From Marsupella aquatica (lineage: Eukaryota; Plantae; Marchantiophyta): a stretch of DNA of 64,000 nt. The notes under the pieces were generated by a model. It was not told where the DNA came from. It worked only from the letters and a program-made list of their open reading frames with translations, and did no database searches. Below, piece by piece: positions 947 through 29,477 of the stretch. How positions within the stretch are numbered: the first letter of the stretch is position 1; every line of letters starts with the position of its first letter. The position numbers and the translations under genes were made by a program. The DNA is taken from assembly GCA_973895155.1 (NCBI GenBank), contig OZ316895.1:21650558-21714557 (forward strand), in the 5' to 3' direction.

Positions 947-967
947 CACTAGTACATTTTAGGCACT

Positions 968-1492
968 TTTCCGATACTAAAAACACGCGTTTCTCAACGC
1001 GCCCGATACTAAACACAACAGAAACGTTCCGATACTCTCAGCTACGGAACTTCCGATACTACCAAAATCGGACATTACTATCCGATAGTTTTTGTATCGA
1101 AAACCTTATCCAATCCCCATCATATCGGACAATGTCCGAAACATCCTGTATCGCAAATTGAGAGCCGACATGTTTTTCAGACGTCCGATAAGAATAGTAT
1201 CGAAAGCTAATTCTGATAGGTTTGCTTTCGGACATTTACCGATACAAGTGTTATCGGACTTATTTTTGCGATACTAGTTACAACGGAAATCATTTGCGAA
1301 GGCTTAGGTATCGGTTATTATCCGTTGAAATTTCTATCGGACCCCTCCTCGGCCTCGGGCTTAAGTGTTCGATCTGTGGAGTATCGGATAGTGGCTTCCG
1401 ATTCTTATAGTATTGGAAAATCCGATACTTTGAGGATGGGAAGGGGTTTTTGGCTTTGTCAGTACTGATGTGTGTCCGATATGTTTCCGATG
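968..1492. repeat. CACTA left subterminal repeat array (TCCGATA/TATCGGA-type motif, both orientations)
   Basis: Dense copies of (t)ccgata, tatcgga, tatcga and tccga just inside the TIR. Confidence 0.9.
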
Positions 1493-1695
1493 GTATTTGA
1501 ATGGGACATATGGGACTTTAGTGTTTTACAATGTATAGGTTGCATGGAATTAATGGATTCAGATATGCGGCATACTTTAAGCAATAGATATGTATACTGC
1601 ATGAAATTGTGGACAATGAGAAAAATCGTAGAATGCCGATAAAAAGATAGTGCCGGTAAAAATATGAATGAAGATGGTGGGGTCTACAATTTATA

Positions 1696-4600
1696 CTAAC
1701 TCGTGGGGGGTATGTCTCTATCTTCCACTACAACTACGTTGGGTCTCTCTTGGACTATGGACCGTGATCTGGGAATATACGGCATGACAATGGACCACTC
1801 GGGGTCATTGGGATAGGGTAGGTAAAAGCATTGCTCAAGGTGATGTGGGAAGGCAAAGGGATCTGAGGACCTCCAGTTGGAACTGATGACACTATTTGCG
1901 GATGTCTTCAAACGAGTAAAACCGCATGCATCATCTTCACAAGTACGATTGTGGCCTACAAGATTCATCTTGAACCATTTGCACTTGAATACCACTTCCT
2001 CCAAAGTAGTATGTGCATGGTACTTCACTGTTAGGATCTCCTCAATCTTCCCATAATGGGCCACGGTGGAGCGAATGGGATTCATGTCTGACATGCTACT
2101 CTGGGAATCTTGGGTGAACCAACCCATCACCCCACAATCCTGTGTAGCTGCCCTCTTCTCATCAAGTCGTTCCACACGAAAATGTCTCCCCTTTGATCAC
2201 ATGGCAGTCCGAGTCATGACTATAAGTAGTGAACCATGAACCAAGGTACGAAGTTTATCTGTCACGTTTGGGTAGTGTAATACACTCTCCCCGGTACCCA
2301 CCAGGGCATCCACTTCTAACAACTTCTCCTTCATGTATGGGTGAAACTTGGGAAATAACCGTGGGCGTCGACTGTTTTGCTTCTCCTCCTCATAAAATGT
2401 TGTCCACTCCCCGACAACCTCGGGTGAGTTATACAACATAAATGTTGTGAGCTGTAAACGCTCTGCTGAGCCTATGAGACGCTCTCCAGATGCCCCAGTG
2501 AGTCTATCATCCTCGTAGTCAGCCTCTCGTGCTGCCTCATCTATCCATCCCCTAGGAGCACTAGGATCTAGTGTGGCAACTATGTTTGTACAGTAAAACA
2601 TACTCTCTGCTCCAAGATGACGCTCCGCAATGCTACCTTCCACCCTAGCGCGATTAAAGACATATGACTTCATCACCCCCATATAACGCTCTACCCAATA
2701 CATCCATCGACAATGTACTGGGCCTGCAATTGCAACCTCGCGCACTAAATGTATGAGGAAATGAACCTGACCATCAAAGAATGAGGGAGGGAGTGCCTTC
2801 TCCAACTTGCAGACAACCTCTACTCCAAATATCTCCATAGCAGCAATGTCATCGGACTCCTGTACCTCCTTTTGACATACCCATCTTAAGAGCTTACCCA
2901 ATGACCAAAGGGCATCACGAAGTTCCTCACTACCCAATCCAATAATAGCAACTGGAAGAACATGTTCAAGAAAGATGGCCATTTTGGAGAATCCTCCCCC
3001 CCAAATGCCTTCCGAAGATTGGTACCATAACCTGTGGGAAACCTCATCAACCCAATACGTCTGCAAAACTCAATGCGCTCTGCCCTTGTCAAAACCCAAG
3101 GAGGATGGATGCTAGGGGGAGCACCAGGGGGGTCCAAAGATGGCCAAAAACCCAAAAGACCATGCATCCCCATCTCCTCACAACTTTCTCTCCAATTGTT
3201 ATTTTTCTCCCCATATAGATGGCGAATCAATGATTTCCCCACATTCCCCTCAATGTGCATAGGGTCTAACAAGTGATTAATGGGCATATCTGACCAATAT
3301 GGCAATTGTGACAATGCAGACAAACGGGTCATGCCACATCTGAATAATGGTAATGGATCACTCGGATCCTGAACTCTCCCCCATACCTCTCTCCAATATG
3401 CTGGATCCTTCCGCTGAGGTTGAGGACGAATATCAGGTTGGCCCTCATCAGTATCATAAAGGAATGGATCACTCCTCCAAGGATGGTCTGGTGAAAGATA
3501 TTTAGTATGACCAATGTAAACAATTTTTTGCAGAGTACTTGACTTGGGCCTGGCCACCCCCTCCAAATCGGGTCCACATGTAGAGCAAGCTCGATAGCCT
3601 GATGTTTGCAATCTAGAAACATATCCAAACCCTGCCCAGTGCATAGAAAACACATTCATAAAATAAGGTTCATCAAGGCAAAAATCTGCATAATTGCAAT
3701 TAAATACAAGGTTTAGGTACTAGAGGAAATAAGGGTTTACCATACCTGGTAAATCATGCATGGTCCACATAAGGATGGCCTTTAGAGTAAATACGCGGGA
3801 TAAACCTCCTGTGTTGTGACGTCCATCATAACAATCCACTCCTCTCCACAGTTGTATCAACTCATCAATCAATGGCTGCAAGTACACATCAATCTTTTTA
3901 ACTTGCTTAGGACCCGGAATAATCATGGAGAGTAGTAGGTGACCTTTCTTCATGGCCATCCAAGGAGGGATGTTGTAGTTTGTCAACACTACTGGCCACA
4001 CCGAATATGGTTTGGCTTTTCCTGTCAAAGCAAAAGGGCTGATACCGTCTGCTGCCAAGCCTAGTCGAACATGTCGTGGGTCAATTTTGAACTCTCCCCA
4101 TCTATCCTCTACAAATCGATTGGCAGGAGAGTCAACCATCATCCGCATGGCACTAGAGGGTACAGCCATATCAGAACAATTTTGTGAGTGCCATACCATC
4201 ATCTCAGCCAACTCTGCACATCGGAATTGATGTCACAATCGAGGGATAAGAGGAAAGTACCTCATAACCTTTTGCGGTACCTTCCCCGTCAACATGTCAT
4301 CACGGTACCGTGGCTTCTGACATTTAGGACATGTTGTGGCATTTTCATGCTCACCCCTAAAAAGAATGCAATCATCCACACATGCATGTATCACCTCATA
4401 CTTCAGGCCAATGGACCTCAACACCTGTTTAGCCTCTTTCCAAGAGGCTAGCAATGCATTGCCTACTGGCAAAATACGATCATGCAAGGTACGGAAAACA
4501 TCATCCAAAAGTAGATTGCTTGCCCCATGTCTTTGCTGCAAGTTGAGCAACAACATTATTGATGAGAGCCGAGATAACCTACTCCCCTCGAATATGCGAG

Positions 4601-4913
4601 TACGGGCATGACGTTGCGCCTCCTCCCATTGCTTGTCTTGGGACCCCCTAGAAGGATGTGGATGACTAGTCCTTTCATGGGTTGAACCAATGTCCTCCAA
4701 ACCAATGTCATCGTGATCATCATAGAATTGGTCCATGAGCTCATCCATGGCCCTCTCCTCATCAAGATGGTCTTGGATAGGATCATCACCATCATGTCGT
4801 ACCCCATCCTCTTGCCTTTGTGGTTCATGCCCACGGTTGGCCACCATGGCCTCAACAAGGTGTTGTCGCATAGCTCGTGATATTACCCCAATATCAGGCG
4901 TTACATATTGATT
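1696..4913 (-). pseudogene. CACTA TnpD/Tnp2-family transposase (Transposase_21 / DUF4218 / DUF4216-like), disrupted
   Basis: Motifs IHACVDDCILFRGE..CPKC, RHVRLGLAADGISPF, SVWPVVLTNYNIPPW, LMWTMHDLPG, HLLDPMHIEGNV, FFDGQVHFLIHLVREV..GPVHCRWMYWVER, DPFAFPHHLEQCFY. GT-AG intron at 3745-3632; in-frame TGA at 4235-4233 and 2199-2197; frameshift near 2970. Confidence 0.93.
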
Positions 4914-5036
4914 CTATCATACAACATCAATTAATTAATCTCATCAACACATGCACTGCTGAACAACATCATTCTCATGTAAACATGTAAAATAAATTGA
5001 CATATATATATACATGTATGTAAGTCCAAGAAACTA

Positions 5037-6392
5037 TCATGGACGACAACGCAAGGACAATTTTGGTGCATCCCACTCATACTCACACAATAACTCCTCA
5101 CCAGCTCTAATGGTCCTAACAGCTACTGTCATGATATGGTCGTCCATATGTTTCACAAAATATGGATGTCTAGGTGGACCAAACATTTGAATCCACTCTA
5201 CATTAGCCTCCAAACCTCTATCTCTACCTGTGGTACTATTGATGTACCCTGCTAAATTACCGTTCCGAATAGGGTCACCATCAATCATCCAGCAATGCCA
5301 CGGCCTAGTGAAGACCTCATCCGGGTCTGAGTCCATCCTCAATGCATACACCCCCCAACTTGGGTGTTGACGCAACAAAATATTCCAACTCTTGGAGTTA
5401 TATACAGCCCCAATGTAAGGAAAGAGATGCTCTCCATCATAACCACGTCTCCATGGCTTTGGAGGGACCACAATATCCTCCAAAGCAAAAAGACCATATC
5501 CTATATCATGACCAATAGAGGATGCCTTCACTATCCAAGGGCGACCCCATATCTGAACTGGTTCATCTGTAGGAATAAAATCTGGAAATTTGAAGAGACT
5601 TGGAGAAAAGTCCTTCAAAACTTTGGCAGCCCTACCAGTGAGATAGGATAGTCCAAACCTGCCCTCAACGCAAATATAATCTACGTTACCGGCTGGTCGA
5701 TCACTAATACCTAACACCTCCTCTCGTCTGTCTACCTGGTCCAGTGGTCCATACTGCCGTCTACGTCTACCAGATTGTGGTCGTGTACATAGGACTCTAG
5801 TAGTCACAACCTCGGGCTGAGAGACCGGTTCCCCCTCTACATGCTCATGTGTGGGCACGGGAGTGGGGATAGGAGCAGGTGGGCTAAGAGGCATCTGGGC
5901 AGGAGGAACTGCAAGCAACTCCCTGGCCCTTGCTAGAAACCCTTCCAACCACACAGCTTCAGGAACCAAAGGAGGTGGGGGCCTACGAGGCACCTATTTC
6001 AACACACGTACAATGGTTTTACACAAATCAATAAATTAAGTAGTGCCAGGATGTAAATGCAAGATAATTAAGCAATACCCTAAATTGGAATGCATATATG
6101 GAATGAATAGGGGACATAAACATATATATACCTGGCTAGGCAAATACCCTGGCATATCACCCTCGTGGTGGCCATAGTTCTCGATGTGCTCACAAGTCTC
6201 CCACGCATGTCGAACCACAAGTCCCTTACATCTCACACACCAGCAAGGTATGGGTCCTAGTGGAGCACGAGGACGATCTGGAGGAGGGGGTGGAGGAACC
6301 TCCCCCTCAGACGAGCTTGTGTCTGAGTCTGAATCTGACGTGGAACTATCAGAAGTAGACATCTGCATGCATGAAGTACACTCTGAATTCAT
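5037..6392 (-). CDS. Transposon-borne SET-domain protein with an N-terminal CxCxxC..H transposase-associated-like Zn motif; join(6392-6132, 5993-5037), about 405 aa
   Basis: SET motifs SSIGHDIGYGLFALEDI, FPYIGAVY, GNLAGYINS..ANVEW, AVRTIRAGEELLCEY. Exon 1 has IPCWCVRCKG...TCEHIENYG. Phase-0 CAG|GTATAT donor (6131) and AAATAG|GTG acceptor (5994) join in frame; no stops. Confidence 0.85.
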
Positions 6393-6680
6393 GTAAGCTG
6401 CATAAAAGAAGACAAGTGTTGGAGTATCAAAATAGAATTAATTAATGCATGAGATACAAAAGTCCTATTGTACCTCAATGATACCCGCGCTTTGCCAGCC
6501 TACTGTGTCGTATTTTCTACACACAAGGTGTGGGACATCCAAAATCTCTGCATATATGGGTGAGCATTTTGCTAATGAGCATACATAATCTGTAAGTGCG
6601 AAAGAGTGTAGGAAGAACACACCACATATAAAAAAATTCCAACATACAAATTAAGTGTAAATGATGCGGCTCGTGAAGCG

Positions 6681-7382
6681 GGGACATCATACCTCCTAGA
6701 TGCGCGGTCTCACACTATGCATAGTACATTGTCCAAAACAAAACCTATCTACCCCCTCACAAACATTGAACCACCCCTCCAAACGCAAGGTACTGTGCAT
6801 CAAATCCAACACAACCATTAGCCTAGCTAATATATGGAGGTTGAACCTTATCCTAAGAAAAGGTGTAACCTTATCCTAGTAAAACCCCATAACCCTAAGC
6901 CCATAAACCCCTCCAAAGAAATGATCCAAATAGCTTTCACCAAGAAATGGTTCGTACAAAAACTTCTTGTAGTATTTTGTCTATCATATATCATAGTATT
7001 GAGTTCCCATCACCACAACCATCCCTAAACTTGCAAGAGGACATCATACCTCCTGGATGCACGGTTTCATGCATAGTGCATTGTCCAAAATCGAAACCTC
7101 CCTACCCCCTCAAAAAAAGTTAACCACCCCTCCAAAAGCAAGGTACTACACATCAAATCCAAACACAAAGATTAGCCTAATGAAGGGGTTTAATATTATC
7201 CTAACAAAAGGTATAATGTTATACTAATAAAACCTCTACGTACACCCATAATCCCCTATAAAGAAATGAAACAAAAGGCTTTCACCCGAAAATGGTTCAT
7301 ACAAAAACTTCTTGTAGTATTTTCTTGATCCTATATTACATATCATAGTATTGAGTTCCCATCACCACAACCACCCCTAAAA
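6681..7382. repeat. About 360-bp imperfect tandem duplication between the divergent CACTA genes
   Basis: ggacatcatacctcct.gatgc at ~6682 and ~7039; both copies end in gagttcccatcaccacaacca.ccctaaa. Confidence 0.85.
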
Positions 7383-8041
7383 CACCAAGACTCTATACAC
7401 AATTGCATCATTAATTAGAGCCCAATATATTAAGCATGCAAGACCATAGCTTATCAAAAAAATTACATAGTCCGGTACAAACCCCAAAATTTGTTCTCCG
7501 CAACAAAGAAACTTGCAAGAGGTCCCTCTACATGCATGACACGTTCACTGTCCCGTTCACATATGTAGAGCCCTACAAAACGCGGATTCAAATATGAAAG
7601 CAAATAATAACTCCAACCATGTGCCCTTACCCCATACAAAACCTAAATATCCTAAATTATACTCTAAACCCTCCAATCCCATTATACCCAACCCAAATTC
7701 AAAACATTATATTGGACCCCCTTTGGGAAAGCCAAGAGGTATCCGATATAAATTCATGAGGGGTCCGATGCAATAGGAAACGGGCCACACTTGGTAAATA
7801 CACGGCCACAAGAAAAGGACGAGGGGTCCGAAGCAGATAGTTTCAGAAAGTCCGATTGCGTGTCCGATACCTTTGGTTTCGCAAAGTCCGAAATAGAAAG
7901 AATCGGAAGCAGCAGGTTTTGTTTCGGAAAAAAGAACCGATGCAGGTGCGAAGACCCGCACGTCGGGCCCTGTTTCGCACTTGGTGTTTTTCAAATTTTT
8001 TGAAGCTGGATCAAGGAGGAGAGCTTGAAGGAGGAGGAGAG

Positions 8042-10393
8042 ATGGAGGGGGGCGGGGGATCAGGTGGTGGGGGAGACGAAGGGGGATCAGGTGGTGGTGG
8101 AGAGCAAGGGGGACCGTCCCAGCCATACAATGAAGTTATGAGGGACATTTTTGTGGCCAAGGCAGGGCTGAGTGTGGAGGACGCAGAGAGAGTAGTCCCA
8201 CTCCTCCAAACGCTGATTGATGCCTCTCGGCGTGAGGCAGAGAAGACTGCTGCTGCAAGCATTGCAAGTGAGAAGGAGGCAAAGAAGAGGAAGAAAGAGG
8301 CAAAGAGAGGCAAGGGGGATGCAGAGGAGACACTGTCTCCAAGAAAACGAGAGAAAAAGCTTCGAAAAGAAGCTAGGGCAATTGAGAAGGTGCGATTGGA
8401 GGAGCAGAGGCGAAAGGAGGCAGAGAGAGCTCTCAGGCCTGAGCTAGCTCTCAATTCGGGTGGTGGTCCATTGCCTAAGAGCTACCATCTATTCCGAAGC
8501 CAATTCAAGCAGGTGCTGAGGGCCAATTTGGGGCCACTGGATTACTGGGGCAAGAAGAAGGAGGAAGAGAGATTGAGAATCAGAGAGCAGGTGAAGGAAC
8601 GGTTCAGGAACGGGGCCTACATTGATGACAGGTTCCTAAACAAACGAATTTCAGCATCACTCTCAGACATGCGCAATCATCAGCGAGAGAAATTCAGAAA
8701 GTACCTTGGAGATATGGCAGTGGATGCAGAGGTGATCAGGGAGGAGGGTTGTCCAGACGATGTTTCCCCGGATGAGTGGGCGGCTTGGCTTGAGGAGGAA
8801 CTCTCAGTCCGTGCCTGGCTGAAAAGAAGACATTGGGACAACGAAATTAGGCTGGCAGAGGAGAAGCGAAAGGCTGGGGAGAATGTTGATATCCTCCCCC
8901 TTCAACAGAACCTGCAACAATGGGCAGCTCAGGCAGCAAGACTCCCCAAACCACCAAGGCACATCATAGCAGCATTGGAGAGAGTGCAGGGGAGGCCAAC
9001 CATCACTCACCGGATGGGGCAAGGCGGCTCCAATCGATTGAAGGCTGAGTTTGTAAGTGCCCTCCCTCTCCTCCCCACCTCGACTCCCTGATCACCTGAC
9101 TCCTCGCACGAAGAATGAGTTGTTTGTGCCTTATGTCTTTTGTTTAAACCCTTTGCAAAACTCATTTTTGCTCTTGGGCCTGTTCTTTCCGATACTCATC
9201 CGATAGGTTTTGCATCGGAAGCAGCATCGGACACCGTGTCATGCCATTTTTCTTGTTACGCATCCGATAGACGTCCGATGCAGGCTGTATCGGACTCTGA
9301 ATTGGACCCCTCGGCAAAACATTTAAATTTTTGAATGAACGTACTTAACGTTAATTTTTTACTAGGGTAGAGTATAAGTTAGGGTGAACTATGGTTTAAG
9401 GTTACATTAGGGCTATGTAGGGTGGCTTGGTTTAGGGTAGGGCGCGCTAATACTAGATTTGATATTAACCTGGCCTCTATGGTTTGGATCTTTAAATTTC
9501 AGGAGCGGGAGTATGGTCGCCCTATTGCGCCGTTGGAGAGGAATTTGGCAAAGACGGATGGACCCCGCGCTCTAAAGCGCCACCTTGAGGATGAGTTGGG
9601 AGAGGTAAGTGTTCACCCTAGGGTGATATAATGTTTAAGGTTGTCATGAATTTGTTAGAGTTATGGTCGGGACCATTCATTCTAACTGCAATTAAACCCT
9701 ATTGCGCAGAATGAGGAGGGGTCTGGGTCGGAGGAGCTGGACTCAGATTCTGAGCAGGATGCTGAGGCAGGGTTGGGGAGGGTGCCCACAGTCACCCCTA
9801 CTCCTCAGGTCCGAGGTGTTGTTGCCCCATCTGGTGCCGTTGCCCCATCAGCAGGGAGGGGTGGGTCACATGCTGCTGATGGTGTGGGCTCCCATCGTTG
9901 TGGAGCATCACGGGGTGCGGGGCCCAGGCACTCAGGGGGTAGTAGAGGTGATGGCATGGGACGAGGCGATCGCGTAGGAGTATCTGGTGCAGGTGGCCCT
10001 TCCCGACGAGGTAGTGGCGACATGCCGGATGGTGGATCTAGAGGGCACGCACCATCTCGTGAGTCTGGTGGGAGTACAGCACGACATGGGCCACCCACAG
10101 GATCTGTCGGCGCACCATCCCATCACTCTAGCAGGTCTGCGGGAGGAGCTGAGGCGTCCTTTCACTCTGCCATGTCGGGGGTTGGTGGGACATCTACCTT
10201 GCCTGACCACCCTAGCGGTGCATCTAGTGGGTCAGGGTCTAGGCCTGCATCAGGCCAACCCATGCCATCTGGTGAGCAGGTGGCTGCCACGGTTGTGGGC
10301 AGCCAGAGGGAGGAGGGCTCTCATGATGCTAGACCTGTACCCACCCTTCGTTCTCGCCCAAAGAAGAAGAAGGGACGCAACACACCTTTTTAG
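8042..10393 (+). CDS. CACTA ORF2/TnpA-like accessory protein; join(8042-9052, 9503-9604, 9710-10393), about 598 aa
   Basis: Open reading frame across three phase-0 GT-AG exons; coiled-coil region, W-rich helical region, HRMGQGG motif (resembles the HxLGxGGY of CACTA ORF2 proteins), G/S-rich tail ending in basic RPKKKKGR; true start uncertain. Confidence 0.75.
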
Positions 10394-10729
10394 AGGTTAG
10401 TTGCATTTAGGTGGTCGGGTATCTAGTGCTAGACAGCTTTGATTAGACACTCACTCGGAGGTACCTTGTATATAGCTCAGTGTAGTCTCTAGTCAAAGCT
10501 CTCTTTACATCTTCTATCATGCCATCACGACCAGGATGGGTCTACCCAGTAGGCCTAATCCATTTTGTACATATTGGGGTGATCCCCTTTTTGAATATGA
10601 TATTTTGACCTCGTGTTTATAGCATTATCTTTGGTTCCTAATTGGTGTATGTCACCTTCAACCCTAAACCAATACCCAAACCCCCAAAAAACCACCCATG
10701 AAACCCTGTATTCCACCCCCAGAACATTT

Positions 10730-11220
10730 GATAATCCGTTGCAAGTCCGTTACCATCCGTATCGGTAATATAGCAGTGTCCGATGCTGCTGCCTTCAAAC
10801 TTTCCCATCCCCAACGCATCGGACCCCTCCTTCAAGGTTCCCATCTTAAATATATCGGATAGTCCGATACAAAAAGTAACGCACTTTCCGTTATTATAAA
10901 TAACGCAATGTCCGATACAAATTCCTTCACAACTTGCCATGTCAAATATATCGGACATACCGATTTAAATAGTATCGGACATAGGAAATCATCGTGTGCC
11001 GTCGCGTGTTAGTTATCCGATTCATTTTACAACGGACATAAAATATCCGTAACACGTTACAACGGAACGTCCGTCGTAAAAAATATCGGAAAGTCCGATG
11101 GAAGTCCGATGGTCGATATGCGATGGTTTGCGCATCGCAAAGTGCGTTGGGAATTGCATCGGATGATAGAAATTTTTGCGTCAATTTTCCTGAAGGGATC
11201 CGATGTAAATCCTATCGAAT
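10730..11220. repeat. CACTA right subterminal repeat array
   Basis: Many tccgat / atcgga / tatcgg copies immediately inside the right TIR. Confidence 0.9.
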
Positions 11221-11243
11221 AAAGGCCCAAAAATGTACTAGTG

Positions 11244-12050
11244 TTCTTTGATCCTGTTTGCCAACTTCCCAATCAACCAAAATTCATGAATCATGGCCAC
11301 CAGGTCCACATGCATAAACTCCTAGCATGCCTAGTAGATCTCCGCTGTAAGACCATCTGGGCCTGGGGCCTTATCCTTTGGGAGCAACCACAATACTTCT
11401 TTAATTTCCTTAGTTGTTGGCAGCCTTTTCATCAAATCAATCTCAGATGCACCTAATGCAGCTCGCGTGTGCTCCAACAACCTGCTGCGCTCTTTAAGTG
11501 TGTTGCTTCTCTCATACTTCGTAGGTGCCCCAGGAGCGTAGAGCTCCACGCAAGTCCTCTCCACTTCTCTCATGATCTGTCCTGCCTCCGTGAGCACCTA
11601 CCCTCCTTCAAGCAACAAGCTTTTCATTGCCTCCCGTTCCCTCTTAGCTTTCACGGTTGCAAAGTAGAATCACAAGGGTTCCTCACCCTCCCCCAACCAT
11701 TTTATTCTTGCCATCCGTCTCCCTCGGGTGTATTAGTAGAGACGTACCCCCCAACCCTCTTAAGGAGTCGAGGTGATATATTGGTAGGATGGTAATATGG
11801 CTCTCATTACCATATCCAATGATCTGAACTAATCAACTTTAATCTCTTGCAGGGCCAAAATATCAAGTCTTTCTCTTCGAGACTCAATCCAATTTTTAAC
11901 GACATGCTGCTTGTCGGGCTCACACGGGCCATATACATTCCAGGAGGCTAACTTTAGCATCTCCCCTCTAAGCGACCGGTGGCTGCCCGTGGTCCAACCA
12001 TGTTTATAGGCGGATCCTGTTGCCCGATGGTGAGCCTCATCCCTCACTCC
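11244..12050 (-). mobile_element. L1-type LINE ORF2 5' part (APE endonuclease start and pre-RT region), internally deleted
   Basis: LKLASWNVYG...DILALQEIK (APE) and EIKEVLWLLPKDKAPGPDGLTAE; continues in frame into 1-946 once the CACTA is removed. Confidence 0.88.
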
Positions 12051-13129
12051 CACTCCTCCTAGTCCTTGGTGTAGCTATTGCAATTTCTCCTGTCTCTTCC
12101 ATTTGATAGTCTTTGTTTAGTGAAGGAGCAAGCGCCAGTGTGGGCGCAGACAAGACTAAGTGACTAAATGCACACAACATGGAGTTCAGGCCTTTTGGCA
12201 GACAATCCAAGTTTCATTGTGGCGCAAATTAAAGGGCGGGCCGGGCCCCAAGGAACAAACTTTCTTTCAAGCTTTTCTATTCTACAAGATTTTTGACCCC
12301 GACAATTCTATCCTTTGGCTCTCTTTTTGGGATCATGCATGATAGAAGAGTTAATAAAACTCTCCTTTGTATAATGTTCTCTTTCAAATCTCCAGGTGTA
12401 GAGGACCAAGCTCCATAGTTTCTTGATGCCATTCATTGCTACAAAGATGAAGCATCAACTAGCTTGCAGCAAGGGCGTGAAAGGGGCACCGGCGGTGTTC
12501 AATAGGCCATAATACAACCATTAGGAACACTGATAGCAAAGCCAAGAATCTGCAATTTCTTGTTTGATCGATCAACATATCAATTTTACCATGATTTTAG
12601 TTTGCGATAGAGAGGGGAATTGTCAATTTAACTACCAGATGTCACTTTGTTCATGTTGACAATCATAAATCTTGTCATATTTGCTAGACTGTGTGAGTGG
12701 GGATCAAATGCAAAGTTCAGTTCTTGATTGGTTTGATTGGCTGACGCAGGAATCAAGATTGGGGAGAATGTTGCGCAGGATTTTTTGACGTAGTGAGTAA
12801 TTGAATTTGATCGGGCTAATTTTGGTTTTGCGAGTGGTTAGGGAGCCAAAAACTTGAGTGTCCTCAAAGTTTTTTTCAATCCAGGATGCAAATTAAATTT
12901 GCACACCCAAGGTTGCTTCCAATTGAGTCACTCATGAAGCGGCTTGCAGCCTGTATACACAAGTCAAAGCTACTTAGTCCACCCTTCCAAGAACTCAAAT
13001 CATTTATTAAGCACCGTGTCTGGAACCTTGACATCTATACCACTTGCTCCATTTCAAGATCTATCATGACCAATTCCAGATATAAAGTGGTGGACCTTGC
13101 CACCCAACGTCCTCACCAATCCCAGCACT

Positions 13130-14450: not shown

Positions 14451-15521
14451 ATGCTAAGTCCTCCCCGGATGGCCTATCCGGGCCTGGACCATAAGGGAGC
14501 TCGGCGTTGGAGTCAGCGACGCAAAAGCTAAGTGTTAAGGTAGTCGAGTTCTGCAACTTATAAACACTAGTGAATCATTTTGTGCTAGACTATTTTTGGA
14601 CTTTCATGTAACAATGAAAACTAGTACAAGTAGTCAGGTGTGTAGAATAAGTTGGTTCATGCCAGTCCATATCATGACAGACCTATTTAATGTTGAAGGG
14701 GGTTTGAGAATGTATCAAACTAAGAATTTATGTGTCTTCAAGCCAACTTTTGGATCCATATTTGCATCTCTAATGGATCCAGGTTGACATGTTAAAATTG
14801 AGGCGACTAATGACATTATTTTAAGTGTCATGTTCTTTGATCATCAATTGGTTTTAGGTACCATGTTGGACAAAAAAATGCTATATATTACTTTTGGTTA
14901 TGTGCGCGAACAGTTTTGCAAGATGTGTGGGTTGCAATGAACCAAGCTAATACTGTGGAAATGATGGACCTAGAGATTGAACTTTTTGATAAAATACATG
15001 TAAAATTGGATGTTGAAAGATATTGGGGCTTAAAAGATCTTTGTGAAGAAGTCTGCTTCTACATCAGCTCTGAGAATGTTGAGATAAGTTTTCTTTTTGG
15101 CATTGTTAGGCCAACCAAACCAAGATGTTGGGAGAAGATAATTTTGAGGTTGGACATTCAAAGTCAAACTAACATCATTCTTTGGCACTTATGAAGACAA
15201 TGTATGCCCATTAATTATTTGTAAACTTGTGAATATGCAAAAAATGCAACAAATGAGAAGGTGATGTTAGTCCACAACATTGGTGAAGACAATTTTCTTC
15301 GCATTAATAAAAATGTAGGACCACAAGTTTAAAGTAGGCCTAAGTAGTCAAAGACCCACTCTTGAGAATAGCCTAGGGACATTTTACTAGGTGAACTAGG
15401 GATATTTTACAGCCTATTTGATTGATGCCCTTAAATTTAGCCCTAGTATAGTGTAATTATCAAGTTCGAGTATGATTGACTTAGAGATTTGGTTCATGCT
15501 GGTCAGTTATGTCACTTTATT

Positions 15522-16000
15522 ATGATCAAAATAAATTTATTATTGATGACCACTATGTGAAAAATGAAGAGTTTATCGATAGTTTTCTATTGATGAGCCT
15601 AATATGAGGTGTAATAGAGTGCACATTTATCAAGAATCCAATTTTCAATCACGTCAATGCAAAAAACATCAAAGATGAATAATGAAACTGAATCCACAAT
15701 TGTAAACTGAATGTGATCAAAATGGATTTATTATTGATGATCACTATGTCAAAAATGAAGAGCTTGTCGATAGCTTTCTATTGATGAGCCTAATAGAGTG
15801 CACATTTATCAAGAATCCAATTTTCAATCATGTCAATGCAAAAAACATCAAAGACAAAAAATAAAACTGAACAATTATGAACTAAATGTGATCAAAATAG
15901 ATTTATTATTGATGACCACTATATGAAAAATGAAGAGCTTATTGATAGCTTTCTATTGAGCCTAATATGAGGTGTAATAGAACGCATATTTATCAAGAAT
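15522..16000. repeat. About 180-190-bp tandem repeat, ~2.6 copies
   Basis: tgatcaaaat..atttattattgatga.cacta..aaaaatgaagag recurs at ~15523, ~15713 and ~15889. Confidence 0.85.
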
Positions 16001-16029
16001 CTAATGATGAATTATATCATTCTAGACTC

Positions 16030-16800
16030 TAATTGTGTATTCTCATTTTCTTCACTAGTCATTGTCATAACATGGGATATTGTATCTTCTGCATTTGTAA
16101 GTTCTAGTTTGTTGTTCTCTCAATGTTGTATGACACGGTACCAATATTAAAATATTTTGCACTACTGGTGAAATTGGATTTTTTGTGTCACCATGTTGTC
16201 ATTGGTATGTTGATTTAGCTGATGAATGACTTTTTTCCATACCTTAAGAACTCCATATTGACAAACTTCCATATTTGTTCACAAACCAAGATGCATGCCA
16301 AACCAAAACATGCTACAAAATATGTGGAAACTCCAACATTAGATATTTTCATAATATAAAATAAATCATAGCAATTCAACTAATTTTAACAACTATTGAA
16401 ATAATATTTTAACCACTTACCATATAGTGAGTCACATGGTATTCGCCAAAGGCTTTAATATGTATAACCGATATCATGCCTCAATCTTGGGCTTGAAAGT
16501 CTTTTGCTGGTTGTGTCAATATAAGCCCACTGAGGTATGGTTGCAACGTTTCGTAAGCTTTCCACATTGGCAATCGAGAAAGTTTGTCGTCTGGCCCATT
16601 ATGATGATGAGCGGCATATATATCTATCCAAACTTTCTCCTTATTTGATGATGAGTTTTTTTTGAACAATCTAGCAACATGTGCTTCATTCACGTTCGAT
16701 AATTTTGGACACTCCCTGTCGCTCCTAAAAAGATTGGGTCTTTAAATATTTGCACACGACCTCCATGAACTCAAGCATATGATAACGAATCTTCCATTTC
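16030..16800 (-). pseudogene. Transib/RAG1-like DDE transposase C-terminal remnant
   Basis: Spliced (intron 16420-16313, GTAAGT..TTGTAG) translation KAFGEYHVTHYM|HVLVWHASWFVNKYGSLSIWSS*GMEKSH has HxxxxH and GS..W.S.G.E spacing like RAG1; stops and frameshifts present. Confidence 0.6.
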
Positions 16801-18829
16801 TTATATAGTTTTTACTTGCAAGGCTTTATTTCTCATGAGATGAAGATGCAAGATGCAAAATTTTTCCAAACAAGAAATGAAGATGCAAGATTTTCTCCAT
16901 CATTCAAACATTAGCATGCAATGTGCAAACGTGAACCCTTGTCAATATTTCTAATACTATTGACAAGGGTGGTCTCACAAACACACACGGTCCCTTTCTT
17001 GAATTGCTCATCAACTGTTGGCTTGAAGCAGATTGGTTATCTTCCATTTTTTTTGTTTTTTTTTTCTCAAGAAAAACGAGCGTACTTTATTGATCTTCCG
17101 TTTTTTTTTTGTATTTAGCTTGTCTCACTTGTGTCCAAAATCCCTTATGTAATATTTAACAGTCAATTTTGTATAAGTGAAAGAATTATGAATCAGCAAA
17201 ATCACTTCCCCTCTCATTTTCTCAGCACTGTGTATTCTGCTTCACTCAAGGTACTTCTTATTGACAATTCACTATCCTCACTAAATAAGAACAAAGTCCA
17301 AAATTTAGTTCTTGATCTCATTATGACTTTCTATTATAATTTCTTTCCCTTACTCCCATTTCTAGATTCCGGTCCGAGCCACAATTGTTACCAGCTTTCT
17401 CAATCAGAAAATTCTTAATCGGCATTCCCCAATATGGTCATAAAAAATGTTAACCGTTAGAATTAATTAGTTGCCAAATACTTGAATTAATTATCCAACA
17501 TAACTCTCAACTTGATTAATGTCATTTCTTGTATCAATTAAATATTTTATGACTTTAATTTACTTGATTTCTTGTGCACTCTTCGCTTGCTATCCAGCCT
17601 TTTTGACAATTAGATAGTGACAGCGCAATAGGATAACTGTTACTTGCTACTGGATAGTGCATCTCTTTGTTAATTGTTCTTCAGTTAATCATTCTCCTGA
17701 GCAATCATTCTTAATTTTGTCTTCTATTTTCGTTGCTCTAAGATTAAGTGTTTGTATTGCAACCTGCACTTGTTCCACTCTTGTTTCCCTAGCTCCTTCC
17801 CCTATTTGTCGGTATGTTGGGTTGATTCTCATCTTCTAAAACTCTTATCTTTGTTTAGTTTTCTTACTCTTGTTCTCCATAATTCTCACTGCCCAACACT
17901 CATTCATGATACAAAAACAATACATTTCCTGTGTGCCAACTTGCATATGAAACTCATGCCCAATGACTCCAAACAATTGGCAACCGACTTTTTCCCATAC
18001 TTGATAGACACCATCATTGATTTGCACAAAGAAATTGTACATGTATTGGCCTAAACCTACTGGTCGACAAAAATGATTCACTCGATTCCGCATCGGCAAC
18101 CCTATATTCTAGTTTTCTCTGCTCAGTTTAACTCTACAAGCATTTGGCCTTAAGGCACACAACTTTTCATCTTCTAATGGGATATTGCATCCCTCATAAA
18201 CTAAGTCGCTACCATGCATGCCCCAAATTATCACAATCGTTACTCCAACCAAGCCGATAACTCCAGACTGATTCATCTCTATAGAATTGTTGTCTGACCA
18301 AAATTGAGTATCGAATAGACAAAATAAAACTTTGGTGGATTTTTTCAATGCTTAAATAGTAACTGCCCCAATGACTTGACCTATTTAACTATAAATCGAT
18401 ACTTAACTTTAAAATTTCAATAATCTAATTTGTTAAAATTCTACAATTTCACCCTTATTGCTCTCTCCCCTTGCACCAGCCTAGGTACTTACATTCTTGA
18501 GGAGGCCCACCCAGTGCGTCCAGAATGTTATACACACACCCAAGGAGAAGAAATTTTTTTCCATTCCCTTTCTTTCAGTATATCTCTGTATGACATAAAT
18601 TCTCATTATGACATTTTTTTTCGAGCATAAAATGGGAGCCACACGAGGGGGTATTTACAAACGATAGGAAACAATAAATAGTAATAGGAAACAAAAATTA
18701 GTAACAGGAAAACGAATGGTTATTTTTTTTGAAATGTTTTTGAAATGTTTTTTTGAATATTATTTTTGGAAAAAGAAAGTTTTTTTTCTTCAAATTTTTA
18801 ATTTTTTTGCTACCGCCTAAAGGCAGAAA

Positions 18830-21800
18830 ATAAACTAGGTTATGACACCTTGATATGACCATGTTTCAGAAAATGAAAAGAGTAACCCACGGCATACCAC
18901 AAAACGCACATCCACACATTTAAAACAATCATGCATGGCATGTTCTCAAGGCAAATTAATAGTTAGACCTTCTATTTCTAAAATTATATACGAAATGCCT
19001 AGATTTTTAGAATGCGTCCATGCAAATGTATGTGATCTCATTGAACCACCAAATGGATCATTTTGATTTTTCCTAATCATAATCAACGCATCCTTAAAAT
19101 GGTTACAAGTTTTATTACTCTCTACATGAAATAGGGTTTTTTCAAGACTTTCAGCACACATCTTGAAGCTAAAATCTCAATTCCCCTGAAAACTCTATCA
19201 AGACTAATTCACCTCAAAAACATTGGAAGATCTTTGCATGGGTACATGGATAGACATATCCATTTCCAAAACGATATTGTTAAATCTATCATTAAGAGAA
19301 TACAGATTATAATAAGACATGTGCTTATGCAAAACACAACTATCTACAATTGCTTGGGGCCATGCTATATTCCCGGCTATATTACATGCAACATCTTTAC
19401 TTAAATATCACCTATCAATATACAATGATCTAACTCCACACCACTTAGTATTTGGAATAGACCCTGACTTATCCCATGTCAAACAATTGGTTATCAAGTA
19501 CTTGTCCCCATAATGAGACCTAAACGTATTGAAATAAGATCTCAAAGATAAAAAGATATCTACATTGGTTTTGAATCACCATCTATAATCAAGTACCTCG
19601 AACCATCCACAGCCAATATTTTTCAAGCAAAGTTTCTTGATTGTCATTTTTATGAGAATATTTTTCCTAAATTGTTTGAAGAGAAACCACAATTTGGAGG
19701 ACCTTTTAACTTAGAGTTGTGATGGCTTAGAGTCTAAACCCTAAAATCAATCCACTGTTTGAAAAGAGTGTGGAGCAAATGTCAAATATATTTACATATA
19801 TTGCACAGGTGATGAGAGCACATATTCCTACCACAAACGCTCCTGCATATTTGCAAGAATATACAAACTGGCCACAAACCAACCACCAAGAGCAAAATAT
19901 GGACGTTGTCGTGAAAATTCCCTACAGAATACTAGAATCCATATTGTGTTATTAGAGTTTATGCAAAAAGAATATTATTTAAAAGTTTCATAGTAGTCCT
20001 ATTAGAACATATAGCTTATATTATGTATAATGTACATTCTACAGTGATATATAATAATTATATCAATTATGTATAATAATTTGATTAATTATATATAGTA
20101 GTTTCATCAATTATATACAATAGTTCTATCAACTAAATATAATAGTTCCACCAACTATGCATAATAGTTTCACGAACTACACACAATAATTTCACCAACT
20201 ATGAATAATATTAGCACACTTATAGGTATTTGATCATTGCCACTTGGTTTCGATCCAAAGCCAAAATATTGATCCATATTTTTTTGAAAGCACAAAGGAG
20301 CACTATAAATAAAATGAAGAGGAGCACATTCTGTTCATTCTCATTGTTTGATCTATCATGTTGTTCCAATGCTTTAAAGAGCTCTTTCTTTCTTGTGCAC
20401 ATGTTTTCTTTATTATTTGCATTTATGATTGGGTATCTAAAATTATTTTATATTTTATGCTTAATAGTCTTGAGATCAATTTAGAATAATTATAATAAAT
20501 AATATGACAAATGAAGTACCTAGTGTTTATTCCCTACGTGCTATGTCATTTGTTACTCATTTTTTAATTAGAATTCAATATCATAGCAAACATACCATGA
20601 GAATGCATCTTTTTTATTATTTTGGATTTGAGTTAATGAAAGTATTATGAATAACAATACACTATTTGTATAATCCATTATCCTTTAGAAAAATAAATGA
20701 AATATGACTATTTTTATTTATATTAAATAAATCTTTATACACAACCTGAAAATGTATCAGAGTTAGATTTCAATAGGGTTCATAATAATATATCTGATTT
20801 TCTTTCATCAATTAAAATAATAGTATTATGTCAAAAAAATATTGATTATAAAAATATTTTAATTAGAAAATATGGAGATGAAAAATACGATATCATACTT
20901 ATGATGCTAAAGTCTATAATTATATCATCTATGATGAATCTTAAAATTATAATCTTTGTTTTTTACAATTGACTTATCTAATTGTAAGATTCATTGAAAA
21001 TTATAATTCATTATTTGACTTGGGAAATAAATTATATGAAAATAAAGGATAGGCCAATTCAAAGTTTAGTATGATAAATCTGCTCATCGTAAAATGGAAC
21101 AAAGGTCGTGAAAAACATTTTAGAGTATAATGGTAGGAAAAATTGATCAAAAAATGATCGTAAGAGGTGATAAAAACTGCACTTTGGAAAAGTTTCTTTC
21201 AAGATATAAAAATTAAAAGCTTGGTGTTTCCCGATAACTAAAATTTCTCCCGATAACGTCATTTGGGATTTAAAGATACTCAATCAAGATAAAAAAAACT
21301 ATCATAAAAACATCACCCATAATACCACAAACCATCACCCATACTAAACCGAAAAAATCTTAGAAAATGAAGAAATCTCAATTCATTACATGAATATTGG
21401 GACTATATAGAATAGAAAAAATATTTCTATTGACGACAACTTTGTCTTTTACATATCCTAGAATATCACGAGTATATAACCTAACCGGAAAATTATTAGT
21501 AAAACACAGAAAAACCTACATTGGTCAGAATGGGAAAAAATAATTAATTTAAAATTGAATTCATTGATTAAATGCTAAATGTTTAGACCTACTGTTTCAA
21601 AATCATCAACCACCCACTTAACTGATCATAAGTGAACTTTCGTGAAAAAAAAAATACTCAAGACCAAGTTGCACAAATATTTGGGCATGACTTTGACTTG
21701 ATATATGCACCAATGATGGATGCAATAACTTATAGATTCCTAATTGGTTTTCTAGGTCATAGACTAATGATGCATCAGATGGATGTAGTAACATCATATA

Positions 21801-23555
21801 TATATAGACCACTGAATATCAAGATATACATGAAAGCTAATCATTAAATTCAATCACCACAAAAGAGTCTTGAATTTAATTATACTTTAAAATCAAAGCT
21901 TTACTTCCATACAAGACCTTGACTCTCAATGTATTGTTATAATGGAAGGAGGGAGAATTAATCAGCAAATTCGACACTGAATAAGATTCTCTTTCCCATG
22001 GAGTAACTCTAAAAGACTTTATAGGTTTGGAAGCCTAACATAAAGGAGGTATGGAAAGGTATACCCTTTTGAGACTAACAAAACTTGATAAAATATAATT
22101 CTAATACTAAGTTCCAACAAAAACTAAGTCTAAGTGTCGAAATGGCTAAGTGTCATTAAACTTTTCTGATGAAATATAAGATTTGACCAAATTTTTCTAT
22201 TTTTAATTCCAAAAATAATACCCAAAATGCTGATTTTCCTACAGTGGATTGTATTACCTTCAATCTGCAAGCAGGCAAAATCTCAGACTTTTTTGAGTAA
22301 TTAAGTCCTTCAAAGAAATTGGACAAAAGTGATATTGGGTGAAAATGTAATTTAACACAGATTTTTCTAAGTGTAGGGAACTAAATATGTGCACGCTTTA
22401 CAAAGCGTTAGGGTACTGGGGACGCCTTCAGAAGCGTCCTATACTTTTGTCATCGGGGTCAGATGACGCTCTCAAAGGCGTCAAGTCTTGAAGACGGACA
22501 AAGATTTAGTAACTTTGAAAAAATCATAATCGTTGCTCCGATGAAGGTCAAACCTTGCCAGGATAATCTCCTATGTCCATTCCATTTTCTGCCAAAGTTT
22601 CAGACATTTTTTAGGTCTCTATCATTTTAAATAAAATAGGAGGAGATTCAACTTTGTAATTTGCGTCAAACACTTAGAATCTGCACAGAAACTAGATTTC
22701 TTCACAAAAAAACTGTAAAAATCCGGGAATAAACTTCAAATGATGTAATCCAAAAAAAATATTCATCCACACAAGGCACATCCTTTCACTTCCCTATGGA
22801 AGTACGATCTCTAGACGGAGACAATGACACATTCAAGAAAAGAAATGAAAATAAACTATTGTTGGGTCCTGAAAAACCATATATATCAGCAATAGGAGCA
22901 CTAATATTTTTAGCTAACCAGACATGACCAGATTTTTCTTTTTGACGTAAAATTACTAGCTAAACACAATGCACAACCTATTGTACGTCATTGGAATGGC
23001 ATAAAAAAAATAATGTGTTACCTTTAAGGAACCATTGAAATGAGACTACATTTTCCTAATAACACTGATAAAACTTTAACAGGCTATGCGGACGTGGATA
23101 TTTATCAAACCCAGACAACACTAAATAACACACTGGTCATGTTATTTTGTATAGTAGTACAATTATCTCTTGGAAAAGCATTAAACAAACTTTAATCTGT
23201 ACTTCCTCTAACCACGCTAAAATTTTGCCTTATATGAAGCTAGCAGAGATCATTGGTTGAGAAAAAAAAATTGATCATATTAATGCAAACTATGGTTTAC
23301 CAGCTCTAATTCAACCTATTATATTATTAAAAGACAACCAAACATGTGTTAAACAGATATCAAAAGGATTCATTAAAGGAGATTGCATCAAGCACATCGC
23401 GTCAATTTTTTTTTCACCCATGAACAATAAGGCGACACTATTCAAGTGAAGATGATTGTCAGCAAATTAAGACAACCATGCAGATTTGTTTACAAAAACT
23501 TTGACTCTAGCCATACATCAAATTCATTGTCATGGCATTAGCTTACAGAGACTAT
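18830..23555 (+). mobile_element. Heavily decayed Ty1/Copia pol (integrase-RT-RNase H), Bianca-like, with AT-rich insertions
   Basis: Remnants FLECVHANVCDLIEPPNGSF..LLST..LKSQFP (~19000-19190), IYIGFESPSIIKYLEP (~19560), ENEEISIHY (~21365), LGPEKPYISAIGALIFLAN (~22860), GFIKGDCIKHI (~23365). Confidence 0.85.
20092..20210. repeat. About 22-bp minisatellite (aatagtttcaccaactatgcat-like), ~5 copies
   Basis: Visible periodic sequence. Confidence 0.7.
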
Positions 23556-24578
23556 CTAAACTCTGAGATTCATAATAACATTTAACTCTTCATAATCATA
23601 CATATTATACTTATATTTGCAAACAGATAATTGTACTCTATGGTATGTCCCATGGCTCTCTAAACCCAAGAATATGTCTTGAAGAAGCCGATTTCCACTG
23701 GTTTTGCTCTTACCAAGGCCGGTTCCGCGGCTTCTTGCGCGGCTTATTAGCATGAGACGCTGCTAAAATACTTTACTAACTTTTTACCCACATATACTGG
23801 ATAGATCTTTCATCAGGTCATGAGATATGTAGTCGACCTGCTCTAGGACTCTCCTTATTCTCTTTTATTGATCTCGATTCAGGTATGTTTGGATTTCGCC
23901 CTCTGATGCCCAATCGGCTTGGATAGCCGCTAAGATTCCTCTAAGCTCAACACATCCAACTTTTCCTACTCCTTATGACTTCACTTACTTCTTTTCTCTC
24001 TTGTAGTCGATGTGGGCAATCTTTACACAAGTTGAAGCGACACACAACTAGAAAGATAACTCATACTGACTAAGTTATACCGTGCAAGTGCCATACAAGG
24101 AGTACTTCTCACACACAGGATCTATGAACTAAGCCGAAAGGCCAACTCTATTCAGCTCTTAGGTATGAGAAAACATGAATATATATAAAAGTCACTGCAT
24201 AACTAACTGAGAGCTTCTCTTACTAATTGATCCCAACCTTGCTGGTGCACTAAAAACTTGTTAAGAAAAAACCCTGAGTCCCCGCTGCACAGGAATTTCT
24301 CCTGACAGCGCATCTATCTATTTCCTTGTTGTGTAAGCCTAATCTACCTCTAAGTGTAATCTACCTATGTACACGGGGCAAGAGCACAAGTGTTGCTCTT
24401 ACTAGTGGATCCGCAATCCCACTAATCTAAGTGTTAGGGCCGCCTCTTGGCCCTGATCCTAATCATATGGAGTGATTGAACCTATACCCCTGTGTCATGT
24501 AGGGAGGTGGATCTTCACTTACAGAGATAAGTGGTCGTTTGAAGGCTGTCAAAACATGTCTTCCATAGATCAATGAAC

Positions 24579-25406
24579 TCGAGTTGGAAGGGCAATCGGC
24601 TGCGGTTTAAGCTCAGACTTTGCCAGAGCATTGGAAACTGTGAGAATGTATCACTGGCAAAGTTAGAGCTGCAACCGACATCGTTTGATATGCACTTTAG
24701 CATGCACGATCTGTTACGTCTCCAGTTTCACGATTCTGAGCTCGGGGCAAAATTTCACTTCGAGTTGGAAGGGCAATCGGCTGCGGTTTAAGCTCAGACT
24801 TTGCCAGAGCATTGGAAATAGCGAGAATGTATCACTGGCAAAGTTAGAGCTGCAACCAACATTGTTTGGTATGCACTTTAGCATGCGCGATCTGCTATGT
24901 CTCCAGTTTCGCGATTCTGAGCTCGGGGCGAAATTTCACTTCGAGTTGGAAGGGCAATCGGCTGCGGTTTGAGCTCAGATTTTTCCAGAGCATTGGAAAC
25001 AGCAAGAATGTATCACTGGCAAAGTTAGAGATGCAACCGACATCGTTTGATATGCACTTTAGCATGCACGATCTGTTACGTCTCTAGTTTCGCAATTCCG
25101 AGCTTGGGGCAAAATTTCACTTCGAGTTGGAAGGGAAATTGGCTGCGGTTTAAGCTCAAACTTTGCTAGAGCATTGGAAACAGCGAGAATGTATCACTGG
25201 CAAAGTTAGAGCTGCAACCGACATTGTTTGGTATGCACTTTAGCATGCACGATCTGTTACGTGTCCAGTTTCGGGATTCTGAGCTTGGGGCAAAATTTCA
25301 CTTCGAGTTGGAAGGGCAATCGGCTGTGGTTTGAGCTCAGATTTTGGCAGAGTGTTGCAAATAGCGAGAGTGTATCACTGGCAAAGGTAGAGCTGCAACT
25401 GACATC
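24579..25406 (+). repeat. 181-bp tandem monomers, ~4.6 copies, directly upstream of LINE ORF1
   Basis: gagttggaaggg begins at 24581, 24762, 24943, 25124 and 25305 (exact 181-bp period). Confidence 0.95.
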
Positions 25407-25468
25407 CTCTACTACTCCCAATTTCTATTTGTCGTCTAAGAGTACATTCTAACAACAGTTTCAGCTTT

Positions 25469-29200: not shown

Positions 29201-29477
29201 AGAACAAGGGAGATGGAAGGATATTGACAGGAAAAAGAGGGTTTGTCAACTATGTGATAGCTCTAGTATAGAGAATGAATATCATGCATTCATTGCTTGC
29301 AAGTTTTGTGAGGGGGTTAGGATGGCATCTCAAATCTTGGTGAAAGATTTGTATGCATTGTTTGGTCTGCCCCCTCAGCAACTTGGAAGATATATCTTTG
29401 CGGTGGATAGGGAAAGGAGAATAGGTTTGGAAAATCTTTCAGGGCTCTCTAGGTCCATAGTTTCTTTGAGGACATAG
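26243..29477 (+). pseudogene. LINE ORF2 with three frameshifts
   Basis: Frame changes at ~26524-26567 (22-bp tandem duplication), ~28250 and ~28805. Confidence 0.88.

Follow-up and report, generated by a model that had tools for sequence, protein, structure and literature searches.

Can a CACTA transposon place one coding exon at the head of two different proteins, its transposase and a SET-domain protein, by a choice between two splice acceptors? The earlier note on this DNA proposed such an arrangement for an exon with a Cys/His motif (here the Zn exon) in the 64-kb stretch that we analysed as a whole, the window. We find that the feature is real and that it is conserved across families. 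The fuller reading, in which the Zn exon is spliced either to SET or to the transposase and the SET product would be a predicted lysine methyltransferase serving the element, seems to us evenly poised between right and wrong.

The element and its genes

A complete CACTA/EnSpm element of 10,297 bp (10.3 kb) occupies positions 947-11243 of the window. Its 14-bp terminal inverted repeats (TIRs; 947-960 and 11230-11243, with CACTA...TAGTG ends) are perfect, it is bordered by a target-site duplication of 3 bp (the TSD), TTC, at 944-946 and 11244-11246, and it sits inside a LINE ORF2 whose reading frame resumes beyond the insertion. The CACTA...TAGTG termini and the 3-bp TSD are those of CACTA/EnSpm, as are the subterminal short repeats, present here as clustered ATCGGA/TCCGAT hexamers. 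These number 41 inside the 10.3 kb of the element against 15 in the remaining 53.7 kb, and their clusters lie at both element ends, in the intergenic region of the two genes and in the second gene's intron. The minus strand carries, in order, the Zn exon, the SET exon and the transposase, and the plus strand carries the second gene; no second copy of the element lies within the 64-kb window. The features are as follows.

947..11243: CACTA/EnSpm element, from its TIRs, TSD and the continuity of the LINE frame
970..1490: subterminal cluster of ATCGGA/TCCGAT hexamers
About 7740-7905, 9190-9295 and 10760-11205: further ATCGGA/TCCGAT clusters
1696..3631, minus strand: last transposase exon, with the rest of Transposase_21, DUF4218 and DUF4216
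3746..4913, minus strand: transposase exon after acceptor 2, with an acidic linker, a CxxC region and the first part of Transposase_21; Met 4871 is codon 15
4914..5036, minus strand: AT-rich spacer of 123 nt (72% AT) between the SET stop and acceptor 2 (AG 4915-4914)
5037..5993, minus strand: SET exon, 318 codons, open, from Pfam, a structure model and alignment
5501-5493 (GYG), 5417-5409 (YIG), 5258-5235 (NLAGYINS) and 5096-5079 (ELLCEY), minus strand: SET motifs
5994..6131, minus strand: AT-rich intron from the Zn exon to SET, 138 nt, 70% AT, GT..AG, phase 0
6132..6392, minus strand: shared coding exon, with a Ser/acidic and Pro-rich leader and then a CxC-xx-C...H motif (6245-6171), ending at donor 6131
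6682..7381: two direct copies of ~350 bp, 80% identical, non-coding, upstream of the shared exon
8042..10393, plus strand: second gene, divergently oriented, with inferred exons 8042-9052, 9503-9604 and 9710-10393, all of phase 0

The transposase is recognised through Transposase_21 (Pfam E-value 3e-41), DUF4218 (2.6e-29) and DUF4216 (8.7e-08), and it is interrupted by a phase-1 intron (3745-3632) at a site identical to that of the distant family described below. The transposase of this copy is broken, with two premature stops (TGA at 4235-4233 and at 2199-2197) and a frameshifting deletion of ~28 nt near 2970; despite these three lesions, the SET frame of the same copy is open. No relatives of the transposase were found in the viral contigs searched.

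The product of the second gene has no Pfam match and is 32% identical to its distant-family counterpart. From its position, its conservation and a motif, we take it to be a putative TnpA-like accessory protein. The conserved three-exon gene faces away from the transposase gene in both families (window 8042-10393, plus strand; L023:386-1615, minus strand). TnpA-like proteins are described as restricted to flowering plants (PMC13547354; 10.64898/2026.08.24.746577); if the product is TnpA-like, the second gene would fall outside that stated limit.

The LINE ORF2 that received the element is decayed (minus strand; 1-946 and 11244-12100) and is interrupted between the part on the endonuclease side and that on the RT side; the triplet that was duplicated is one of its Glu codons. 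Elsewhere in the window, a second LINE-like element (25403-29474, plus strand) has a frame of 279 aa and further long frames, which we take from their motifs to be ORF1-like and endonuclease/RT-like. An open frame of 671 codons made of PPR-type repeats (56221-58233, plus strand) resembles a plastid pTAC2-like host gene. The region of about 15000-24000 is AT-rich (23-35% GC), and imperfect tandem copies of ~190 bp are visible in it at 15500-16000.

Splice sites in the window and in its relatives

As drawn in the earlier note, the Zn exon (6392-6132) is 261 nt long and of phase 0, encodes CWCVRC (6245-6228) and HIENYG (6188-6171) and ends at a phase-0 donor, and these coordinates check out. The donor GT is at 6131-6130, the exon end reading CAG/GTATAT, and is the best-scoring GT of the region in both families by a rough matrix. 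Of the two bounds, the end before the donor at 6131 stands, and it is the start that we would move: because the Ser-rich N-termini of relatives begin about there, the exon probably starts at ATG 6362 rather than at 6392. This ATG lies immediately downstream of an AG at 6363, and most relatives begin at the Ser-rich leader.

The two phase-0 acceptors claimed downstream were also found where they had been placed. The AG ending at 5994 (acceptor 1) opens the SET frame of 318 codons; behind the AG ending at 4914 (acceptor 2) follow 226 open codons, with Met 4871 in frame. A lone AG is no evidence, since the interval from 6131 to 4800 has 89 of them; only 5994 of the 2 AGs in 6131-5994, and only 4914 of the 6 in 5036-4914, gives a long phase-0 frame. 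Both acceptors are in-frame TAG stops. Since TAG makes up 0.21-0.27 of stop triplets, a stop yields a phase-0 AG by chance in about 1 in 4 cases, and comparison with relatives is therefore needed; for two distant families that each have phase-0 TAG acceptors at both frames, the chance comes to about 0.27^4 = 0.5%. Introns are 70-72% AT and exons 46-53%. In the window the AT-content change-points lie +1 nt from the donor and -1 and +13 nt from the two acceptors; in the relative L004 they lie +9, -1 and +6 nt from the corresponding sites.

A scan of metagenome contigs gave 31 loci. Their best DNA matches are of 90-99% in most cases and of 79% at the lowest, and they represent a single family, which we count as one independent case. 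Identity of SET between the window and this distant family is about 42% (30-46% across loci), and blastn finds no DNA similarity between them over the Zn and SET exons. The order is that of the window, with the second gene on the opposite strand, the Zn exon, SET and the transposase, and in four loci a CACTAC terminus lies on the second gene's side. The earlier note had named conservation of both AG acceptors across copies as a check, and it is borne out: the AG is intact at acceptor 1 in 23 of 25 loci and at acceptor 2 in 15 of 16, the donor GT is intact in all 18 loci covering it, and every one of these sites is of phase 0. Acceptor 2 reads TAG/AAT in the window and in the distant family alike. 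The Zn cores of the two families align with a score reached by none of 2000 shuffles, and the first SET-exon residues with one reached by 16 of 2000; downstream of acceptor 2 the residues show no significant likeness (347 of 2000). The first in-frame Met is SET codon 34 in the window against codon 4 in the distant family, and transposase codon 15 against codon 8, and thus no separate start is conserved in either frame. Two further observations concern the distant family. Its repeated motif contains TCGCAA (L004, L007, L027 and L029; about 6000-9500 in L004) and forms clusters at the terminus, within the intron of the second gene and in the stretch separating the genes, as the ATCGGA hexamer does in the window; the TCGCAA-containing motif resembles CCVTCGCAAA, reported as the target of Arabidopsis TnpA-Spm1 (10.64898/2026.08.24.746577). 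In L012 (2903-3056), the transposase region holds about 150 bases more than that of the window, possibly an extra intron.

In each family a stop closes the SET frame, and the SET exon is free of any strong conserved phase-0 donor; a SET-transposase fusion is rejected on these grounds. The spacer that follows the stop measures 123 nt in the window against 146-147 nt in the distant-family relatives, and neither family has an AATAAA between the SET stop and acceptor 2. We infer that the spacer 4914-5036 would serve both as the 3' UTR of the SET mRNA, poly(A) region included, and as the 3' end of the long intron.

Nearer subfamilies were seen in four public sequencing runs that carry the stretch; their contigs behave as DNA covering introns and are uninformative on expression. 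Over 4830-4975, where 65, 16, 24 and 43 contigs align in the four runs, all 12 substitution rows fall within 4866-4901, none in 4902-4975, and indels are absent. The divergent contigs can be aligned as far as 4925-4931, that is 11-17 nt into the intron, and then continue in unrelated intron sequence. Six contigs from three runs leave the alignment at 4895, showing six different codons and then the identical TAG/AAT acceptor in the same place; one X4 contig departs at 4913, and its letters differ from those of exon 1. ATG 4871 is unchanged in these related subfamilies, and 7 of the 11 substitution rows in 4872-4901 are non-synonymous. Over the wider stretch, divergent contigs are joined so as to leave out the inside of introns and retain their edges; among 15 of the 21 contig joints, those listed, there is no exact exon junction.

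Database proteins, which may derive from RNA or from gene prediction, carry one of the two junctions. A Zn-motif profile searched against 1.84 billion representatives gave 25 matches, from which the repeat proteins P0018 and P0029 and the frameshifted P0026 were set aside; the remaining 22, together with P0001 and the window, form an alignment of 24 rows. In P0001, P0010, P0011 and P0030, with both families represented, the Zn exon runs straight into SET-exon sequence. Val stands at the donor column in 17 of the 19 unspliced relatives, as reading through a phase-0 GT would give, and the two relatives lacking it are the most distant. A direct junction from the Zn exon to the transposase start occurs in none of the 25 matches, and word-index searches for longer proteins with the Zn exon or the transposase N-terminus, which are weak evidence, returned none. 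The alternative splicing proposed in the earlier note is thus upheld for the two conserved acceptors and for the Zn-SET junction, and finds no database protein for the Zn-transposase junction. Two proteins deserve separate mention. P0030 continues through the first ~100 SET-exon residues and then into the transposase linker; this form may be a third isoform, or it may come from a deleted copy or a predicted intron. In P0034, a C-terminal SET fragment (hhalign probability 96%) stands close behind a distant Zn motif, suggesting another family in which the two are linked.

The SET product and the shared module

The SET product scores 27.9 bits against Pfam SET (PF00856; cut-off 22.4), a cut-off passed also by all five relatives tested. 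PF00856 is the only Pfam family found in it, and there is no methylase domain. The best Foldseek rows of its structure model (pLDDT 69) are SET domains at E about 1e-6. MLL1/3, LegAS4 and SETD8 match about equally (E about 1e-6 to 1e-5, TM about 0.4), and with MLL1, SETD8 and LegAS4 about equally near in fold no substrate can therefore be named; viral SET structures match no better than cellular ones. An Atlas search returned SET clusters, one of them all-eukaryote and mostly Streptophyta, and a match to a PR/SET cluster with a score of 0.95. PDB sequence matches are at best at E 0.4 or worse. The closest named relative is a protein of the liverwort Calypogeia fissa (59%), which makes a liverwort the probable host, and no relatives for the SET alignment were found in the viral contigs or prokaryote genomes searched.

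GxG and a C-terminal catalytic Tyr are motifs with defined roles in SET domains, and the canonical histone SET methyltransferase has in addition NH in motif III and a post-SET Cys cluster. Here, GxG is kept in all 14 alignment rows and the C-terminal Tyr in all 12 of the 14 that reach it. The NH motif reads NS in each of the 12 sequences covering the site, and the alignment holds no post-SET CxC Cys cluster, so the product departs from the canonical histone enzymes at both points. For these two reasons methyltransferase activity is not assured; judged from the sequence and the fold model, activity as a lysine methyltransferase is plausible. Among the best 40 of 421 rows, 14 of 26 substitutions in the SET exon are synonymous (p about 0.0015 against a rough 25%), which argues that the exon is under constraint.

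The earlier note likened the Zn exon to the transposase-associated domain Transpos_assoc (PF13963) and proposed an HMM check, which divides the claim. The window's exon itself does not match PF13963 (cut-off 27.7). PF13963 is nevertheless the top family, below threshold (12.8-17.2 bits, E 0.006-0.14), in 7 of the 25 Zn-motif relatives, and all seven matches cover the Cys/His motif. The exon is probably a divergent relative of PF13963 and not a formal member. No CxCxxC motif is present in the transposase frames, and we suggest that the exon encodes the transposase's own divergent N-terminal module; three Cys and a His would be consistent with zinc binding. The predicted module (pLDDT 55, poor) has no fold match and neither an Atlas match nor a PDB sequence match, and a complex prediction of the module with the putative TnpA, run without alignments, scored 0.00, a value that speaks neither for nor against contact between the two.

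Mechanism, alternatives and known systems

In the mechanism that we propose, one promoter between the two genes would drive the pre-mRNA of the shared-exon gene. Joining the first coding exon to the near acceptor would give a Zn-SET mRNA whose 3' end falls within the 123-nt spacer, at a presumed intronic poly(A) site, and joining it to the far acceptor would give the full transposase, so that the choice of acceptor would set the ratio of helper to transposase. From the conserved splice signals, the Zn-transposase mRNA probably exists. The SET product would methylate the element's own chromatin or proteins, and we lean slightly towards its catalytic activity being used for the element's benefit, most simply in counter-silencing.

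How the SET product would reach its target is a more tentative matter. The earlier note suggested that the shared module might take SET to element DNA, and this is weakened by the report that the DNA-binding domain of Spm lies in TnpA (10.64898/2026.08.24.746577). Spm TnpA binds element motifs and reverses silencing (10.64898/2026.08.24.746577), and TnpD interacts with TnpA (PMC1636069; PMC13547354). Because the sequence-specific domain is reported in TnpA and TnpD contacts it, we favour over direct DNA binding by the Zn module a route in which the SET product would be recruited as the transposase is, probably via a TnpA-like protein. By this analogy, the shared N-terminal module may bring SET to the transposase's partner, most plausibly a TnpA-like protein on the hexamer clusters, which we hold possible and on balance unlikely. 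The complete scheme would be an old bryophyte CACTA lineage in which a splice choice decides whether the transposase's N-terminal module heads the transposase or a divergent SET enzyme, a self-encoded histone methyltransferase brought to TnpA-bound motif clusters whose mark evades host silencing; as a whole it is doubtful.

The two-isoform splicing may be right and the nature of the SET product wrong, Zn-SET being a catalytically weak reader or a methylator of non-histone targets (TnpA, the transposase or a host silencing protein). The replacement of NH by NS in 12 of 12 sequences, the missing post-SET CxC, a fold search that singles out no nearest histone-methyltransferase class and PDB sequence matches of E 0.4 or worse all speak for this. 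We nonetheless consider it improbable, if worth keeping in mind, given that families of 42% identity retain both GxG and the C-terminal Tyr and that the Atlas match is to a PR/SET cluster (0.95). PR/SET proteins without the His can be active. The isoform might also act mainly as a brake, the near acceptor absorbing most transcripts and its product competing with or silencing the transposase, much as P-element repressor isoforms do. The proximal acceptor does come first and is the one used by all four spliced database proteins, the distal one being used directly by none of 25, and splicing control of the P-element transposase is documented (PMC4158355). Such a role is unlikely, since a pure decoy needs no conserved SET domain of 220 residues.

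If only the Zn-SET junction were used, the transposase would start at Met 4871, driven by a separate promoter or translated by re-initiation on a transcript with two ORFs; maize Spm is described as having such a transcript for tnpD (PMC1636069). That none of the 25 Zn-motif proteins is joined to the transposase start is consistent with this, as are the constancy of ATG 4871 among the related subfamilies and a Met within 15 codons in both families. Against it, the two families place their Met at positions that do not correspond, the AG, 11-17 intron bases and the 14 codons upstream of Met 4871 are preserved and free of indels, 15 of 16 distant-family loci retain acceptor 2, and the exon looks like a divergent transposase-associated domain that is otherwise missing from the transposase; we regard an independent start as quite unlikely. 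Finally, CACTA elements capture gene fragments (PMC4158355), and a TAG stop gives a phase-0 AG about once in four, so the SET exon might be neutral captured host DNA with splice signals that arose by chance. Its position and phases are alike in families 42% identical in SET, its substitutions show a synonymous excess, and its frame is open although the transposase has three lesions; this reading is barely credible and already largely refuted.

We return to the complete scheme sketched above. If it is true, a transposon of land plants would encode its own chromatin writer, tied to the dosage of its transposase, and it would offer a direct test, in easily transformed bryophytes, of whether transposons write their own chromatin marks. 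The shared exon would give a first handle on the function of the PF13963-type N-terminal module in CACTA transposases. The family is multi-copy and old (SET about 42% between families) and may add many unannotated SET genes to bryophyte genomes. A bryophyte CACTA element with a SET exon, or the alternative-exon layout, was found nowhere in the full-text literature that we searched, a search to which supplements and Repbase Reports are external.

In maize En/Spm and in Arabidopsis EN/SPM3 and 7, alternative splicing of a single unit yields TnpA and TnpD, and variants with split genes are described alongside it (PMC1636069, PMC13547354). The present element has the CACTA termini, 3-bp TSD and Transposase_21 of En/Spm and, as proposed here, two products per transcription unit by splicing. 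It differs in that the alternative product is a SET domain sharing a coding N-terminal exon with the transposase. The analogy with TnpA/TnpD splicing drawn in the earlier note is also weakened, as both families encode the putative TnpA separately, in a divergently oriented gene on the other strand, whereas the split-gene Arabidopsis families are arranged head-to-tail (PMC13547354).

Among SET-bearing transposons, red-algal Plavaka elements of the EnSpm superfamily have an accessory gene, PAG2, that carries SET, and Helitrons also have SET cargo (10.1101/2025.02.11.637652). Plavaka and the present element are alike as EnSpm-superfamily elements with a PF00856 SET domain as long-kept cargo; PAG2 is set apart, by its description, as a separate accessory gene combining an N6-adenine methylase with SET, there being neither a separate gene nor a methylase domain here, and the hosts are red algae there and a land plant here. 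HarbingerS and oomycete MuDR families encode SET (cited in PMC12730594) and are likewise DNA transposons coding for a SET lysine-methyltransferase-like protein, but they belong to other superfamilies and hosts, and the part of PMC12730594 available to us does not mention a shared-exon layout. VANC of VANDAL and TnpA of Spm1 and Spm3 are anti-silencing DNA binders that rely on host demethylases (10.64898/2026.08.24.746577). With these the element has in common an element-encoded factor and clusters of short motifs at its ends and inside it, and it differs in that it supplies an enzyme fold itself. In primates, the host gene SETMAR joins SET and transposase in one polypeptide; there, as here, a SET domain adjoins a DNA transposase, but the SET exon here ends in a stop and would give alternative products, not a fusion. 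SET-bearing transposons and alternatively spliced CACTA genes are therefore each of a known kind, and what appears unusual, as read from the sequence, is the coding exon that the two would share.
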